Positions 42,826 through 48,324 of a stretch of DNA of 64,000 nt are shown here, in pieces. The position numbers were made by a program, and so were the translations under genes. Every line of letters begins with the position of its first letter. Position 1 is the stretch's first letter. Under the pieces are notes generated by a model. The model saw nothing but the letters and a program-made list of their open reading frames with translations, had not been told where the DNA came from and did not search any database. Source of the stretch: an uncultured Chlamydiae bacterium (lineage in GTDB: Bacteria; Chlamydiota; Chlamydiia; Chlamydiales; Parachlamydiaceae); NCBI GenBank assembly GCA_963754655.1, contig CAVWGN010000001.1, positions 2,144,001 through 2,208,000 of the forward strand, in the 5' to 3' direction.

Positions 42826-43854
42826 TTATAAAGCTGTAAATTGACCAAGAAAGCGCAAATCATTTTCAGTAAATAAGCGGATATCTTGGATCCCCCTCAA
42901 CATCATCACAAGCCTTTCAAGTCCCATTCCCCAAGCAAAGCCCGTGTATTGTTCTGCATCAATCCCTCCATTGCGCAATACTTCAGGATGAATCATTCCA
43001 GCTCCTGCTATTTCAACCCAGCCGGTTTGTTTACATAAAGGACATCCTTTTCCTTGGCAAACCAAGCAAGTGATATCCACTTCAACTCCCGGCTCGACAA
43101 AAGGAAAATAGCTAGGACGATAGCGAGTGGCAATCTCTTGTGTAAAAAGCTTGCTCAAAAAGTCATCCAGTGTCGCAAACAAATCACCAAATGTGACATT
43201 TTTATCGATATACACAGCTTCTACCTGATGAAAGAAAACGTGTGAACGAGCAGTAATGGTTTCATTGCGATAGACTTTGCCAGGCGCAATGATGCGAATC
43301 GGCGGTTTATTCAGTTCCATGATGCGCGCTTGGATGTTAGAGGTATGCGTGCGCAACAAAACATGCGGAGAAAGGTAAAAGGTGTCTTGCATATCGCGGG
43401 CTGGATGATCGGGAGGAAAATTCAGCACTTCGAAATTATAGTAATCTGAATCAATATCAGGTCCATATTGAACAGAAAACCCCATTCCCGACAAAATGGT
43501 AATGATTCGATCCATGGCTTGCGTCAAAGGATGCTGACCTCCCCTGTAACGGCGTCGTCCAGGAAGAGTGATATCTAATATTTCATGGGCAAGTTGCTGT
43601 TCTTCTTCGCGAACTGTGAGCTCATGTTTGAGCTGGTCGCATTTCGCAGTCACAAACTCTTTGAGATCATTAATTTGTTTGCCGATTTGGGGACGCTGAT
43701 CAGGAGTCACATCACGCAGCATTTGCATGAGTTGCTGCACAGGCCCTTTTTTGCCAAGGTATTTCACTTGGACATTTTCCAAATCATCAGTTGTCTTCAC
43801 TTGAGCGACTTGCTGCAGAAATTGTTCGCGAAGTTCTTCGATACGTTGTTGCAC
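42826..43854 (-). CDS. pheS: phenylalanine--tRNA ligase alpha subunit
   Basis: HPARDMQDTF, LRTHTS, YFPFVEP, GFAWGMGLERL. Confidence 0.98.
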   Translation of the reverse strand: MQQRIEELREQFLQQVAQVKTTDDLENVQVKYLGKKGPVQQLMQMLRDVTPDQRPQIGKQINDLKEFVTAKCDQLKHELTVREEEQQLAHEILDITLPGRRRYRGGQHPLTQAMDRIITILSGMGFSVQYGPDIDSDYYNFEVLNFPPDHPARDMQDTFYLSPHVLLRTHTSNIQARIMELNKPPIRIIAPGKVYRNETITARSHVFFHQVEAVYIDKNVTFGDLFATLDDFLSKLFTQEIATRYRPSYFPFVEPGVEVDITCLVCQGKGCPLCKQTGWVEIAGAGMIHPEVLRNGGIDAEQYTGFAWGMGLERLVMMLRGIQDIRLFTENDLRFLGQFTAL

Positions 43855-43895: not shown

Positions 43896-43932
43896 AAAAA
43901 AAGAAAGAGCAAAATCAATGATTTTGCTCTTT
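43896..43932 (-). terminator. intrinsic terminator between rplT and pheS
   Basis: AAAGAGCAAAATC/GATTTTGCTCTTT stem followed by a T-run on the minus strand. Confidence 0.7.
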
Positions 43933-43950: not shown

Positions 43951-44307
43951 TTAAACAAGGGCTTCTTTAGCACATCCCACAATCGCTGCAAATCCACCTG
44001 GATCGCTAATTGCCATGTCAGCTAAAACTTTTCGGTTGAGCTCACATCCCGCTTTTTTCAATCCATAAATAAATTTGCTATAGGAAATTCCATTAATTCT
44101 TGCAGCAGCATTTAAACGCATAATCCACAAACTACGAAAATCGCGTTTCTTTTGCTTACGATGGGCATAATTATAAGCCATCGCGCGCATCACCGCACCG
44201 CTTGTTAAACGCAAGTGATTTTTTCTATCTCCAACAAATCCCTTGGCTAATTTAAATAATCTTTTTTTGCGACGATGAGAAGCTACAGCATTGGTTACTC
44301 TAACCAT
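43951..44307 (-). CDS. rplT: 50S ribosomal protein L20
   Basis: [35 protein letters not shown]. Confidence 0.98.
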
Positions 44308-44485: not shown

Positions 44486-44680
44486 TTATAAGCACATTAA
44501 GCGCTTATAAGTTTTCAAATGACCCTCATCTAAAAGGCCAGGTCGGCGTAACTGACGCTTACGCTTAGCTGTTTTATGGGTTAACAAGTGACGTTTACCT
44601 GGTTGGCTCATTTTAAGCTTTCCTGATCCAGTCACACGAAACCTAGCCGCAACGGCTTTACGAGTCTTCATTTTGGGCAT
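44486..44680 (-). CDS. rpmI: 50S ribosomal protein L35
   Basis: [21 protein letters not shown]. Confidence 0.97.
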
Positions 44681-44712: not shown

Positions 44713-45258
44713 TTAAGGAGCTTCGTCTGTCGAACTCTGCTTAGCTCCTTCTTTCTTTTTCTTAGCTCCAGGAGATAAGACCACGAGCAGCATGCGACCC
44801 ATCATCTTAGCAGGAGATTCAGCAATAGAAATATCTTCTAATTCCTGACACATTGTTTGAACAATCTTTTCTCCAATCTCTGGATGCATCATCTCGCGCC
44901 CACGAAATGTACAAGTAATTTTAACTTTATTGCCACTCGTTAAAAATTCGCGAGCATGATTAGTTTTTGTTTCAAGGTCATGAGCATCAATATTAGGTTT
45001 AAGCTTAATTTCTTTTACCTTGATTTGATGCGAAGCCTTTTTATTTTCCTTTTCCCGTTTGCTTTGGTCATATCGGAACTTTCCAAAATTCATGACTTTG
45101 CAAACTGGCGGATTGGATCCTGGAACAATTTCAACTAGATCTAACCCTTGCTCCTCCGCCATAGCCAATGCCTCGTAAAGAGGCACAACACCCACCTGTT
45201 CTCCAGTGTGGCTAATCACGCGGACTTTTGGAGCTCGTATTTCTCGATTAACTTTCAA
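44713..45258 (-). CDS. infC: translation initiation factor IF-3 (non-ATG start)
   Basis: [36 protein letters not shown]. Confidence 0.97.
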
Positions 45259-47011
45259 GTGATTTATTTTCTCCTCTTATTGCCGTCCTTTCCTTCATAA
45301 GCATAGGACACAAAGATTCTTGATACACTTTATTTAAAAATACCTCTATATCAACAGATTGATTTTGATTAAATCCTTCTGCTCTTCTTACGCTGATCTT
45401 CTGTTTAATTCTCTCTTGCTCTCCTATCAGGACAAGATAGGGAACATTTTCTTTTTCAGCCTCGTGGACCCTTGTGCTTAATTTTGCTTGTCGTGTATCT
45501 AATTTGACTCGCAATCCTTTTTGCTGCAAACGTTGGCTCACTTGCCGCGCATAGACCCGATTCGATTCACCAATTGCCATCACTCGCACTTGCTCGGGAG
45601 CTAACCAAAAGGGAAACACTCCTTCATAGCGCTCGATTAATAAGGCAATAAAGCGGTCAAAGGAACCCCAAATATGCCGTGTCAAAATGACCAACTTGCT
45701 TTCTGCTTGCTGAGCCAATAAAGGATGGAGCTCTTTTAAATGCTGAATGACATTTAAATGAGAAACCGGCCATTCGCGCCCCAAAACATCATGCACTCGC
45801 AGCTCAAGGCGAGGACTCGCTGCCCCTTCTTCCTCTTGTAACTCACAAGAGTAAGGATAAGACCGAGGGTGGGTTTGAATCGCTTGTTTTAACCATCCAA
45901 TGGCTTCTTGTTCTTGTCGAGCTTTAGGACTTTTCTGTCGTGAAGCAATCAAGTACCACTGAGCCTCAAAACCAAACATTGTAATGATTTGTTCAATGAA
46001 ATGCAAGGAAGAAATTAATTCCGAAACAACTTGGTCTTTAAGACAGCAAATTGTCGCGTGATCGATCAAATAGGCGCACTGACAAAAGAGTCCCCACGAC
46101 TGAGACTCGGGATATTGGTGAAAAATAGGCGAATATTCAATCATCCTCCAAGGGAGTTCGTCTGGATCTGGGGAGAAATTTCTCAAAAACTCGAGGTGCT
46201 GCCTCAAGAGAGAAGAACGCAATCTATACTCTTGCCCTTCAAAGAGAAAGGGCTCCAACGCTTGGGGATCCTCTCCTAAAAACTCTAACTTTGCAGCTAG
46301 CGGAGAGGAAAATGAAGCCTCATCTTCAGGCAATTGCTGCTTTAACCAATTGATGAGAATCTGCTGCAATTGAATCCCCTTGGGATGCCACATCACCCCT
46401 AATTTACCCATGGGCTTAGAAAAACTAAAAAGATTAAGCCTAGGACCTAGCATGCGATGATCTCTCTTTTTCAAAAAAGAATCATATTTTTTTAAAAAAA
46501 TTTTTAAATCTTTTGAGGTTTTTTGACAGACTCCTAGAAGACGTGTGACCCTCACCTCTTCTTCTTGAATCTGTTTGATAAAATGACAGGACTCTAGAAG
46601 CTTAATCGAGCCGATTTCATGAGTGCTAGTCAGGGAAAGCGAAGGGCATAAGTCATAGAATTCCTCAATTTGCACGAGTTCTAAAATATTGGAACTTTGT
46701 TCACCTACCTGTTCAGCCAAGAGAAAATGCGCGCGATGTTCAAGCAACGCCTGAGCATTTTCCCGCATCATGCTAATGAAACGCACAGGATGGTTTTCTT
46801 TGATAAAGCGGTGCAAATGAACCTCGATCAATTCTAGCATGCTCTCTGTCAAGGGATTTTCAAAAATAAAATCATAGTAGAAGCCTAAAGAATTGATTCC
46901 CCCACCGACTAGGATGACATTGGGAAACAACTGCCATCCCACTAACGCTAAGACCTTAGCTGCCAAATAGCGTTGCTCAATGAAATTTGAAGAAGGTTGA
47001 GAATTGTCCAT
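45248..47011 (-). CDS. threonyl-tRNA synthetase-like protein with degenerate catalytic motifs
   Basis: GFYYDF, RDHR, GSFDRFIALLIE and FPFWLAPEQV give the ThrRS layout at the thrS position, but the KPMNCP, motif-2 and HRA residues are replaced. Confidence 0.85.
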   Translation of the reverse strand: MDNSQPSSNFIEQRYLAAKVLALVGWQLFPNVILVGGGINSLGFYYDFIFENPLTESMLELIEVHLHRFIKENHPVRFISMMRENAQALLEHRAHFLLAEQVGEQSSNILELVQIEEFYDLCPSLSLTSTHEIGSIKLLESCHFIKQIQEEEVRVTRLLGVCQKTSKDLKIFLKKYDSFLKKRDHRMLGPRLNLFSFSKPMGKLGVMWHPKGIQLQQILINWLKQQLPEDEASFSSPLAAKLEFLGEDPQALEPFLFEGQEYRLRSSLLRQHLEFLRNFSPDPDELPWRMIEYSPIFHQYPESQSWGLFCQCAYLIDHATICCLKDQVVSELISSLHFIEQIITMFGFEAQWYLIASRQKSPKARQEQEAIGWLKQAIQTHPRSYPYSCELQEEEGAASPRLELRVHDVLGREWPVSHLNVIQHLKELHPLLAQQAESKLVILTRHIWGSFDRFIALLIERYEGVFPFWLAPEQVRVMAIGESNRVYARQVSQRLQQKGLRVKLDTRQAKLSTRVHEAEKENVPYLVLIGEQERIKQKISVRRAEGFNQNQSVDIEVFLNKVYQESLCPMLMKERTAIRGENKSLES

Positions 47012-47036
47012 AAAGGGGATAAAGTTAGGTAAGAAA

Positions 47037-47110
47037 TGAGATATAGCTGACTCGAACAGCTGACCTCCACGATGTCAACGTGGCGCTCTAACCAACTGAG
47101 CTAATATCTC
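47037..47110 (-). tRNA. tRNA-Val (GAC)
   Basis: GAGATATTAGCTCAGTTGGTTAGAGCG-CCACG-TT-GAC-AT-CGTGG-AGGTC-AGCTG-TTCGAGT-CAGCT-ATATCTCA folds as a cloverleaf; CCA not encoded. Confidence 0.95.
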
Positions 47111-47180
47111 ATGGAAAGAATTAAGAAGATAACTGATTACAAGAATTTTATTCAAGACCAAAATTTTGCAAATTAAAATC

Positions 47181-47241
47181 TTACCACATGCGCCGTAAAG
47201 CCCCCGTCCTTCAGAACGGGGCTTTACGGCGCATGTGGTAA
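47181..47241. repeat. GC-rich palindrome resembling an IS200/IS605-type end hairpin
   Basis: TTACCACATGCGCCGTAAAGCCCC...GGGGCTTTACGGCGCATGTGGTAA around CCGTCCTTCAGAACGG. Confidence 0.7.
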
Positions 47242-47483
47242 ATCGAATGGCATTTTTAGAACTTGAAAAATGGAAATTTCAATCATGGAAGGCTTTGATC
47301 AAAGGCTCGACTTTTTGAATCGTTTGCTTATGGTGAGTTTGTTAAATTTTTATTTTATTTCGAATTGCTGTTTTTTACCCGTCCACCTTGTTTTTAAAGG
47401 TGTCATTTTTATATAATTTTGAAGACAATCAACTCATGTTCCTTCTCCAACTCCTACTTGGAAGCAAAAATCCACAGAAAACT

Positions 47484-48035
47484 ATGCATAGCGAACTGGA
47501 TGTTTTAAAAGACATATGTTCCCAATTAGACAGTAATGAAATCTCCTATATGTTGACAGGATCATTTGCTGCTAATTTTTATGCTCTTCCACGTATGACA
47601 AGAGACATTGATATTGTCATTGAAATATACCCACAGAATGTTGAAAAAGTTTATAGAATTTTTCAGAAAGACTTTTATATAGATAAAACATCAATCAATG
47701 AAGCCATCCAACATCGGAATATGTTTAATATTATCCATAATGACCTTTCCCTTAAAATTGATTTTATTATTCGTAAAGATGACGAATATCGTCAAATCGA
47801 ATTTCAAAGAAAAAAAAAGATCTATCTTGATAACATCCCTATTTGGATTGTAACTCTGGAAGATCTTATTATTTCCAAGTTATATTGGGCAAAAGACAGC
47901 CACTCTGAAATACAAATGAAAGATGTTAGAAATCTTCTGCTATCTTCACCGCAAATTGATTTCTCTTACATGAAAGAATGGATAGACAAATTAAATCTAT
48001 TTACCCTGTATGAGAAGGTCAAAATCAATGAATGA
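47484..48035 (+). CDS. DNA polymerase beta-like nucleotidyltransferase
   Basis: YMLTGSFAANFY..PRMTRDIDIV, EDLIISKL; start placed at ATG 47484. Confidence 0.8.
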   Translation: MHSELDVLKDICSQLDSNEISYMLTGSFAANFYALPRMTRDIDIVIEIYPQNVEKVYRIFQKDFYIDKTSINEAIQHRNMFNIIHNDLSLKIDFIIRKDDEYRQIEFQRKKKIYLDNIPIWIVTLEDLIISKLYWAKDSHSEIQMKDVRNLLLSSPQIDFSYMKEWIDKLNLFTLYEKVKINE

Positions 48036-48324
48036 TACTTCTCCTATGATGGATAAAAAAATGCGTGAGATGATCAATGCTAAAGACCCTATAGAACGTC
48101 TAAAAATGGGGTGTTCAATGTATCATACATCACGATATTTAATCGAACGTGCCATATTAGAAAAAAATCCCTCTATTTCCAAAATCGACCTTAAAAAGGA
48201 AATTTTCCTCAAATTTTATCGTGATGATTTTTCACCTGAGGAATGTGAACGAATTATTAAACACCTTCAAACCCATGGAAAAGATCATCTTGAACCCTTG
48301 ACATCGAATCATACCATCAATTGA
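48028..48324 (+). CDS. small protein coupled to the nucleotidyltransferase (possible toxin-antitoxin partner)
   Basis: Start overlaps the upstream stop; MNDTSP...PIERLKMGCSM. Confidence 0.6.
   Translation: MNDTSPMMDKKMREMINAKDPIERLKMGCSMYHTSRYLIERAILEKNPSISKIDLKKEIFLKFYRDDFSPEECERIIKHLQTHGKDHLEPLTSNHTIN

Follow-up and report, generated by a model that had tools for sequence, protein, structure and literature searches.

A predicted threonyl-tRNA synthetase pseudo-enzyme encoded directly before infC in environmental chlamydiae

What is a reading frame doing at the head of an infC operon if it is built like a threonyl-tRNA synthetase (ThrRS) and has lost the residues of one? The question is raised by a 64,000-nt stretch of the genome of an uncultured Chlamydiae bacterium (contig CAVWGN010000001.1, positions 2,144,001 to 2,208,000; here the window). 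In E. coli the gene order is thrS-infC-rpmI-rplT-pheMST, and the frame in the window, which we call pseudo-ThrRS, occupies the slot of thrS. That this thrS-infC synteny is ancestral is argued from E. coli as the single example, since infC is absent downstream of two Dojkabacteria-type ThrRS loci (L051, L058). A preliminary description of the window had read the gene as a ThrRS paralogue without catalytic residues, intact over 587 aa, overlapping the infC start, and repurposed for tRNA/mRNA binding or regulation. The ORF call bears out the intact frame on the reverse strand, and the end of the frame shares 11 nt with infC, whose TTG start is at 45258 (Table 1).

Table 1. Features of the pseudo-ThrRS locus, in window coordinates and in order of transcription.
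Feature	Position	Strand	Description	Basis
Promoter-like site TTTGCA-16-TAAAAT	47145..47172	(-)	candidate promoter for tRNA-Val and downstream genes	consensus scan, pattern match only
tRNA-Val(GAC)	47036..47111	(-)	no CCA encoded	ARAGORN; Rfam tRNA 67.8 bits
Spacer	47012..47035	(-)	24 nt, pyrimidine-rich, from tRNA 3' end to ATG	sequence
Pseudo-ThrRS ORF	45248..47011	(-)	587 aa + stop, ATG start	ORF call, profile and structure matches
N2 (editing-domain-like) part, aa 1-180	46472..47011	(-)	alignment begins at E. coli residue 73	
Paralogue-specific conserved segment, aa 81-99	46715..46771	(-)	M81, M82, N85, H92, Q95, A99; at position of editing-site helix carrying E. coli K156	
Linker and class II catalytic-core fold, aa 181-470	45602..46471	(-)	active site erased by alignment, motif 3 kept	PF00587 E 1.9e-7
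Anticodon-binding domain, aa 471-587	45251..45601	(-)	basic, pI 9.7	PF03129 E 3.4e-15
infC Shine-Dalgarno GAGGAG	45271..45277	(-)	within final codons of pseudo-ThrRS ORF	sequence
infC (IF3)	44713..45258	(-)	TTG start	ORF call
rpmI (L35)	44486..44680	(-)		
rplT (L20)	43951..44307	(-)		
Terminator-like hairpin	43904-43932		after rplT	
pheS	42826..43854	(-)		

The protein consists of an N2 part, a class II core and an anticodon-binding domain, in that order, and Pfam finds tRNA_SAD (weakly), tRNA-synt_2b and HGTP_anticodon only; the last of these matches upholds the earlier claim that the anticodon-binding domain is retained. The TGS domain is absent from the N-terminus, both in the Pfam scan and in the alignment to E. 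coli ThrRS (PDB 1qf6), which begins at E. coli residue 73. The HMMER match to 1qf6 has an E value of 2.1e-47. Against TIGR00418, the thrS equivalog profile (EC 6.1.1.3), pseudo-ThrRS is matched over positions 5-564 of 565 with a score of 249.2 bits, short of the curated cut-off of 383.65 bits. In the N2 part, tRNA_SAD (PF07973) reaches 16 bits, below its cut-off of 24, and the AlaXM profile NF040865 matches weakly (E 7.5e-4). The AlphaFold (AF2) model is a confident ThrRS fold (pLDDT 88.8, pTM 0.87), and its best Foldseek matches are the ThrRS structures 1qf6_A (2.9e-44) and then 1nyq. A search of the ESM Atlas returned ThrRS-type clusters only, the best of them a 127-member cluster of 'hypothetical protein' in which Chlamydiota is the commonest phylum; elsewhere, databases name the family 'threonyl-tRNA synthetase' or 'anticodon-binding domain-containing protein'. 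With a net charge of -6.9, the N2 part of the window protein is acidic, and such a charge is not favourable to RNA binding by this part. Paralogues and canonical enzymes are not distinguished by net charge or pI (medians 6.07 and 6.18).

Residues were mapped, in E. coli numbering, from two alignments, one made with MAFFT against ThrS of E. coli K-12 and the other the HMMER alignment to 1qf6. We take Cys334, His385 and His511 of E. coli ThrRS to be the Zn ligands, and the motif-2 and editing-site roles are likewise assigned from structural knowledge of ThrRS. All three ligand positions are replaced in the window protein (C334>L269, H385>T320, H511>T444), and among 30 paralogues they are retained in 0, 12 and 1, respectively. 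In motif 2 the changes are R363>H298, E365>Y300 and R375>C310, with the two arginines surviving in 3/30 and 1/30 paralogues. D383 has become H318, and His309, Tyr462 and Lys465 are substituted or deleted; none of the 30 paralogues keeps D383 or H309. Motif 3 is intact (S517>S450, R520>R453), R520 being present in 28/30. The editing site has changed at H73>Y15, H77>K19, K156>L98 and H186>S126, where the original residue is found in 2, 1, 8 and 4 of the 30; D180 (D120) and C182 (C122) are unchanged, and across the family D180, C182 and Y104 are partly retained (16, 17 and 21 of 30). Every substitution that the preliminary description had listed by eye for the editing motifs, the Zn ligands and the motif-2 arginines is reproduced by both alignments.

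These positions are not variable in the working enzyme: C334, H511, D383, R363, R375, H309, H73 and H77 are all present in 12/12 chlamydial canonical ThrRS. More generally, 13 positions show at least 95% invariance across 52 active ThrRS, and their residues are present in at most 10% of 33 paralogues. Other residues have been gained, specifically M81, M82, N85, H92, Q95, A99, I333, S334 and Q337, each found in 76-100% of the 33 paralogues and in at most 8% of the 52 active enzymes. Judged by these alignments, the whole paralogue family has lost both its synthetic and its editing active site, and the new paralogue-specific constraint falls on two places, a helix after motif 2 and a short stretch at the former editing pocket.

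A functional thrS had been predicted elsewhere in the genome, and there is one, at G000:C1:204841-206511, 1.98 Mb from pseudo-ThrRS. It scores 672.9 bits against the same equivalog profile and has all motifs intact, so that pseudo-ThrRS is not the only thrS-type gene of this organism. A canonical copy was matched in 41/41 relatives, and the paralogue is 25-27% identical to the canonical enzyme.

Related loci show how much of the protein can be dispensed with. A search with the single window protein gave 6 loci, which assigned the group to Parachlamydiaceae, and a metagenome scan gave 4, none close enough to improve dN/dS. Upstream of infC-rpmI-rplT(-pheS), a ThrRS-like gene or remnant is found in 37/41 relatives; it is absent in two, and two are unreadable. 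The paralogues range from 379 to 592 aa, and several lineages keep the gene without its anticodon-binding domain or without the region of motifs 1-2 (canonical positions about 280-385). The N2 part is retained in 37/38 paralogue forms, i.e. in every form that matches the canonical-ThrRS profile; the remaining form, L048, gave no match. One copy is frameshifted (G035). The paralogue can be lost outright, since it is absent in G026 and G028, where tRNA-Val abuts infC, and in 3/3 inspected 1.1-Mb genomes of family f20, the smallest genomes, and is to that extent dispensable.

Where the gene persists, its protein sequence is under selection. For the pair G087-G094, in which the paralogue is a 435-aa form, omega is 0.097 (bootstrap 0.066-0.137) at a dS of 0.65, compared with 0.035 for ThrRS, 0.035 for PheS and 0.12 for IF3; for G000-G002 it is 0.19 (0.13-0.25), with every domain below 0.25 and the anticodon-binding domain at 0.18. 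A clean omega comes from one pair only, because dS was saturated in 9/10 genome pairs compared. The paralogue evolves 3-5 times faster than canonical ThrRS. Estimated from codon substitutions, purifying selection acts on pseudo-ThrRS in all domains, and the expectation that the gene is retained by selection and not decaying agrees with dN/dS values of 0.10-0.19 and with its presence in 37/39 readable relatives. Nor is a 587-codon open frame expected to survive by chance, because about 6% of random codons are stops at this base composition.

A protein that is preserved by selection despite a lost active site must have some other job. With the synthetic and editing sites erased in the alignments, the earlier claim of a pseudo-enzyme stands, and pseudo-ThrRS is very probably a selected, non-aminoacylating one, as read from its residues and substitution pattern. 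The suggestion that it binds tRNA or mRNA through the retained anticodon-binding domain fares less well: that domain is lost in lineages that keep the gene under purifying selection (G087/G094, omega 0.10), so anticodon-type RNA binding is unlikely to be the core function. Our preferred reading, which we regard as likely overall, is an ancient dead ThrRS paralogue under selection, which would serve a translation-related process non-catalytically, as a scaffold or by binding. Two parts would carry this role, the N2 part that is universally retained and the class II core in its C-terminal half, while the anticodon-binding domain would be an accessory that can be dispensed with; that binding is centred on N2 is a tentative proposal, drawn from the pattern of domain retention.

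In the window the paralogue follows a tRNA-Val(GAC) gene, which is the only one of its kind among the genome's 39 tRNAs (ARAGORN), and a tRNA-Val(GAC) gene also precedes it in 30/31 related loci. The transcript would begin at the tRNA-Val promoter, and tRNA processing would leave an mRNA 5' end with a very short leader and no Shine-Dalgarno sequence. Such a sequence is missing from the 24-nt spacer in the window. Apart from the tRNA, Rfam finds nothing above its gathering score between 43800 and 47500. The linkage to the tRNA may reflect just a shared promoter, because it persists where the paralogue is deleted. Promoter-like sites in the region number 4, against 6.8 expected from shuffles. 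One of them lies inside the ORF near infC (45354-45327), but a conserved internal infC promoter is not supported, with such sites at most 150 nt before infC in 5/43 loci and in 41/258 control windows inside ORFs. By eye, GGAG/GAGG-like motifs recur before infC across 44 loci.

Several other explanations have to be weighed against the preferred non-catalytic role. Neutral decay would fit the variable length, the frameshifted copy and the repeated loss, yet, even with dS saturated, just one lineage lacks an open frame, and an omega far below 1 rejects decay. The opposite extreme, a second active ThrRS isoform, is what some database names imply; it is contradicted by the substitution or deletion of Cys334, His385, His511, Arg363, His309, Asp383, Tyr462 and Lys465 and by the score under the thrS family cut-off, and we give almost no credence to either possibility. 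A subtler proposal is that the ORF is a cis-acting device, its translation delivering ribosomes to the infC start or opening the mRNA there, which would couple IF3 synthesis to IF3-sensitive initiation while the protein matters little. IF3 disfavours leaderless initiation. In keeping with such a device, the start lies 0-26 nt past the tRNA in 22/29 loci, an SD-like motif precedes it in 1/30, the stop overlaps infC TTG or lies at most 20 nt from it in 24/41 (overlapping in 11/41), the infC Shine-Dalgarno of the window is inside the last codons of the ORF, and neither the length of the ORF nor its set of domains is fixed. However, an omega of 0.10-0.19 in all domains, a confident fold prediction and conserved paralogue-specific residues speak for the protein, and infC has its own Shine-Dalgarno (by eye) and TTG start (42/44 loci at the aligned position), functions in G026 and G028 with the tRNA immediately before it, and is separated from the paralogue stop by 23-96 nt in 17/41 loci, all of which makes the device quite unlikely. 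We think it equally doubtful that the two ideas combine, such that a leaderless or near-leaderless start after 3' processing of tRNA-Val would make synthesis IF3-sensitive, protein and ORF would form a feedback module on infC-rpmI-rplT, and the ex-editing pocket would act in trans on tRNA 3' ends or the ribosome.

The remaining alternatives give the protein a more specific task. ThrRS forms homodimers by way of its catalytic domain, and the dead paralogue could pair with the canonical enzyme via the class II dimer interface, as a prozyme or HisZ does with its partner, and so tune activity or stability. The core fold, motif 3 and the RDHRxLG segment are retained, and every carrier examined also has an active copy; on the other hand, the identity between the two proteins is merely 25-27%, the region of motifs 1 and 2 is deleted in several lineages that keep the gene, and genomes that lost the paralogue retain a normal thrS. 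A regulatory subunit of this kind is unlikely, if somewhat less so than the cis-acting device. New chemistry, in which a remodelled N2 pocket hydrolyses or binds another aminoacyl-tRNA, e.g. a Thr/Val mischarged species given the adjacent tRNA-Val, could draw on the clustering of paralogue-specific residues at aa 81-99, where the editing-site helix lies, on the partial retention of D180, C182 and Y104, on the universal retention of N2 and on the linkage to tRNA-Val(GAC). The known catalytic residues (H73, H77, H186, K156) are nevertheless lost in most paralogues, no invariant set of new polar residues has appeared, and the tRNA linkage outlasts the paralogue, which leaves this explanation very improbable.

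The paralogues form one group (SH-aLRT 100), and in the free tree they are long-branched and fall outside the whole set of 52 active ThrRS sampled. In an AU test (LG+G4, 45 of 71 rows), a clade uniting them with chlamydial canonical ThrRS was not rejected (p-AU 0.14). The paralogue may have arisen by duplication inside the phylum, or may be the native gene, displaced by an acquired thrS.

Expression data exist for a relative. In supplementary file 2 of PMC5451489, P. amoebophila pc0701, which adjoins infC (pc0702), falls in the class 'const', its log2RPKM values over four stages being 14.5-15.6. Reads from the tRNA gene, which lies 18 nt upstream, may have inflated this very high RPKM. In the same file, pc0701 is marked undetected in the elementary-body proteome, where ThrRS and IF3 were detected.

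If the preferred reading of a dead but selected paralogue is right, an old ThrRS-derived family has been kept in most environmental chlamydiae, in the ancestral thrS slot and with the working enzyme elsewhere. Within the text they covered, full-text literature searches did not find a description of it. Metabolic reconstructions and tallies of synthetase genes can be led astray by its database labels. The erosion of the gene is graded, from full length to forms without the anticodon-binding domain, then without motifs 1-2, and finally to absence, and so maps the parts that carry the new function, and a start directly behind a tRNA is a test case for SD-less initiation in chlamydiae. A practical limit is that the organisms carrying it are hard to manipulate.

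To our knowledge, dead synthetase paralogues with new jobs are few, namely HisZ, mL39 and the polymerase gamma accessory subunit, each of which revealed unexpected biology. The natural reference is canonical ThrRS (E. coli ThrS, 1qf6; S. aureus, 1nyq), with which pseudo-ThrRS shares homology over N2, class II core and anticodon-binding domain, motif 3 and many core residues, and, in E. coli, the slot directly before infC-rpmI-rplT-pheS. Unlike it, pseudo-ThrRS lacks TGS, the Zn ligands, the motif-2 arginines, the threonine- and ATP-binding residues and the editing histidines, falls below the equivalog cut-off, evolves faster and lies close behind tRNA-Val. Active ThrRS duplicates (B. subtilis thrS/thrZ, cyanobacterial T1/T2, the borrelidin and obafluorin self-resistance copies) also give two ThrRS-type genes per genome, but they keep the active site and charge tRNA-Thr, which pseudo-ThrRS, judged by its residues, cannot. 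The free-standing editing proteins AlaX and archaeal ThrRS-ed have the tRNA_SAD/N2-type fold that is the best-kept part of the paralogue family, but as deacylases they keep the catalytic HxxxH/CxxxH, lost here. In the mitochondrial ribosomal protein mL39 (MRPL39), too, the ThrRS-derived N-terminal, editing-domain-like module has lost the editing residues; it has a non-catalytic use in the translation machinery, and pseudo-ThrRS is encoded with the ribosomal protein genes rpmI and rplT. However, mL39 is eukaryotic and consists of TGS and N2 only, whereas in the chlamydial protein TGS is missing and the catalytic core survives in part or in full. HisZ is the HisRS-like regulatory subunit of ATP phosphoribosyltransferase. 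As with pseudo-enzymes of that kind, pseudo-ThrRS has a synthetase fold with its catalytic residues lost, an active paralogue in the same genome and a sequence under purifying selection, and both are class IIa synthetase paralogues without aminoacylation, predicted as such in the case of pseudo-ThrRS, that are selected beside the active enzyme. HisZ differs in deriving from HisRS, in always lacking the anticodon-binding domain, and in having a defined partner, HisG, and a known ligand.

The ThrRS-like ORF ahead of infC is intact, as the preliminary description had it, and its protein matches PF00587 (class II core, E 1.9e-7) and PF03129 (anticodon-binding domain, E 3.4e-15); a tRNA_SAD match falls below the Pfam threshold. 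Against the NCBIfam thrS equivalog it scores 249.2 bits over positions 5-564 of 565 and does not reach the cut-off of 383.65. The closest solved structure is E. coli ThrRS (1qf6, E 2.1e-47), and because this alignment begins only at E. coli residue 73, the protein lacks the N-terminal TGS domain. An AlphaFold2 model computed with 30 family members as input is confident (pLDDT 88.8, pTM 0.87), with ThrRS 1qf6, 6vu9 and 1nyq as its best structural matches. Aligned to the E. coli K-12 thrS product, with E. coli numbering and with functional roles as in the ThrRS structural literature, the protein carries the substitutions already claimed for it: H73, H77 and H186 of the editing site are replaced by Y15, K19 and S126; C334, H385 and H511, the Zn ligands, by L269, T320 and T444; and R363, E365, R375 and D383 by H298, Y300, C310 and H318. 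Motif 3 (S450, R453) is the only motif retained.

We can also follow these losses across the family. Among 30 paralogues, C334, D383 and H309 are retained in none, H511, R375 and H77 in one each, K465 and H73 in two, R363 and Y462 in three and H186 in four (E. coli numbering), while all of them are present in 12/12 chlamydial canonical ThrRS. When the comparison is extended to 52 active ThrRS (13 chlamydial and 39 representatives), 13 positions that are at least 95% invariant among them are matched in no more than 10% of 33 paralogues. By these counts the whole pseudo-ThrRS family appears to be catalytically dead. A functional thrS had been expected elsewhere, and a search of the genome (3.16 Mb, 2 contigs) recovered it: a second match, of 672.9 bits, is a working thrS whose 643-aa product has all motifs and the TGS region intact. 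Among the tRNA genes are three for tRNA-Thr and a single one for tRNA-Val(GAC).

The dN/dS comparison rejects neutral decay: the pseudo-ThrRS is not decaying. Specifically, for relatives G087 and G094, the sole pair with unsaturated dS (0.65), the paralogue (435 aa, without the anticodon-binding domain) gives an omega of 0.097 (bootstrap 0.066-0.137), next to 0.035 for ThrRS, 0.035 for PheS and 0.12 for IF3. In the window's lineage (the window's genome and G002) omega is 0.19 (0.13-0.25) at a dS of 1.39, with 0.15 for the editing-domain-like part (N2), 0.18 and 0.23 for the core halves and 0.18 for the anticodon-binding domain. dS is saturated in the other eight pairs, from which it can be read only that the paralogue has a dN 3-5 times as high as ThrRS. 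The reading frame is intact in every lineage except one, despite amino-acid identity down to 17-30%. New constraint has also arisen. Nine positions are conserved in 76-100% of paralogues but shared by no more than 8% of active ThrRS: in N2 these are M81, M82, N85, H92, position 95 and A99, grouped around the site of the editing residue K156 (L98 in the window protein), and in the helix that follows motif 2 they are I333, S334 and position 337.

Profile mapping defines four forms of the paralogue: full length (553-592 aa), which includes the window protein; a form of about 405-516 aa that stops ahead of the anticodon-binding domain (among others, loci L022, L036 and L039 and genomes G087/G094); a form with that domain present and canonical positions ~280-385, the site of motifs 1 and 2, missing (L030, L040, L041, G126/G140); and a minimal form of N2 and the C-terminal half of the core (about 380-400 aa; G010, G018, G019, G034). 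The parts retained almost throughout are N2 with its linker and the core half that holds motif 3, which speaks against placing the conserved function in the anticodon-binding domain. Within the window's lineage this domain nevertheless remains under constraint and is basic (pI 9.7). At one locus of genome G040 (L047) the match does not stop with the 473-aa ORF but crosses one TGA and one TAA and reaches query residue 527; the stretch after the shortened gene may be what is left of a decayed anticodon-binding domain.

Conservation of the locus, proposed as a check, was read in 41 related genomes, the window's own included. All 41 have a canonical ThrRS copy, most also have a second match that is closer, and in 37 the infC-rpmI-rplT(-pheS) genes are preceded by a ThrRS-like ORF or its remnant, with the G035 copy broken across two frames. 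In G026 and G028 tRNA-Val(GAC) adjoins infC directly and the ThrRS-like ORF is absent; two loci are unreadable (G015, 57% complete, where infC was not found, and G037, with infC at a contig end). Three inspected 1.1-Mb genomes of family f20, probably the Chlamydiaceae, have no ThrRS-like ORF upstream of infC; their tRNA lies ~2.4 kb away. Weak second matches occur at other places in f20 genomes. tRNA-Val(GAC) is immediately 5' of the paralogue in 30/31 loci (ARAGORN). The pseudo-ThrRS is a gene family with a fixed genomic position, between tRNA-Val and infC, and is dispensable in the most reduced genomes. In one 1.4-Mb genome (locus L059) a 305-aa ORF with no match in the reference set separates tRNA-Val from a 337-aa remnant that retains the N2-like part alone.

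Coordinates of the features (window positions unless a contig is named; C1 is the window's contig)
Feature	Position	Strand	Remark
Pseudo-ThrRS ORF	45248-47011	-	587 aa
infC start codon TTG	45256-45258		aligned with TTG in 42/44 chlamydial loci
Internal promoter-like site	45354-45327
Promoter-like site ahead of tRNA-Val	47172-47145
Palindrome	47180-47241		long, near-perfect
Overlapping small ORFs	47388-48324	+	215 and 104 aa; divergent from tRNA-Val promoter region
Canonical thrS match	C1:204841-206511
L047 match	G040:C9:63433-64869
L059	G039:C28 1002-2923

The paralogue ATG lies 24 nt downstream of the 3' end of tRNA-Val, whose CCA is not encoded, and the pyrimidine-rich spacer has no Shine-Dalgarno motif. 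The gap is at most 26 nt in 22/29 loci, and an SD-like motif precedes the paralogue in 1/30. In contrast, a GAGGAG-type Shine-Dalgarno stands ~12 nt ahead of the infC TTG; infC of E. coli starts with AUU, which is used for autoregulation. The internal promoter-like site is rejected as a conserved feature (5/43 loci, compared with 41/258 control windows). The palindrome just 5' of the promoter-like site of tRNA-Val resembles either a bidirectional terminator or a small palindromic repeat element, and similar pieces occur at four other places (near C1:491.8, 632.7, 1646.3 and 1648.3-1648.4 kb).

Entries in supplementary file 2 of PMC5451489 list the P. amoebophila orthologue, pc0701 ('thrS_1', adjoining pc0702 infC), with a transcript log2RPKM of 14.5-15.6 across all four stages (class 'const'). 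It is given no new NCBI locus tag, and its protein is recorded as undetected in the proteome of elementary bodies; for canonical pc2015 the log2RPKM is 8.9-10.3 and the protein was detected. The very high value for pc0701 may be inflated because a tRNA gene ends 18 nt ahead of the ORF. The EffectiveT3 secretion flag in the same file is 'Y' for pc2015 and 'N' for the dead paralogue, the former probably a predictor artefact.

Paralogues and chlamydial canonical ThrRS each form a single group (SH-aLRT 100 for both), and the long paralogue stem joins the tree outside every sampled active ThrRS. The AU test does not reject a tree in which the two groups are joined (p-AU 0.14; LG+G4; 45 of 71 rows). 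At E. coli position 337, 22/30 paralogues have the His that is common in bacteria, versus 0/12 chlamydial canonical ThrRS. Duplication and displacement are therefore both possible origins.

Sequence comparison and the structural model together indicate that the protein is a ThrRS derivative that is folded, under selection and non-aminoacylating, and that its former editing region has been remodelled; it would have a non-catalytic binding or scaffold role linked to translation. Alternatively, it could be a partner of the active ThrRS, or have gained new hydrolase-type chemistry, or the ORF could be a coupling ORF acting chiefly in cis; its stop overlaps the infC start in 11/41 loci and lies within 20 nt of it, overlaps counted, in 24/41. 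Databases contain many members, named 'threonyl-tRNA synthetase', 'putative threonine-tRNA ligase', 'hypothetical' or 'His/Gly/Thr/Pro-type tRNA ligase C-terminal domain-containing protein', and our literature search found no description of the family. The gene order of E. coli K-12 is thrS-infC-rpmI-rplT-pheM-pheS-pheT, with thrS ending 3 nt ahead of infC, and the chlamydial paralogue therefore sits in the classical thrS slot.
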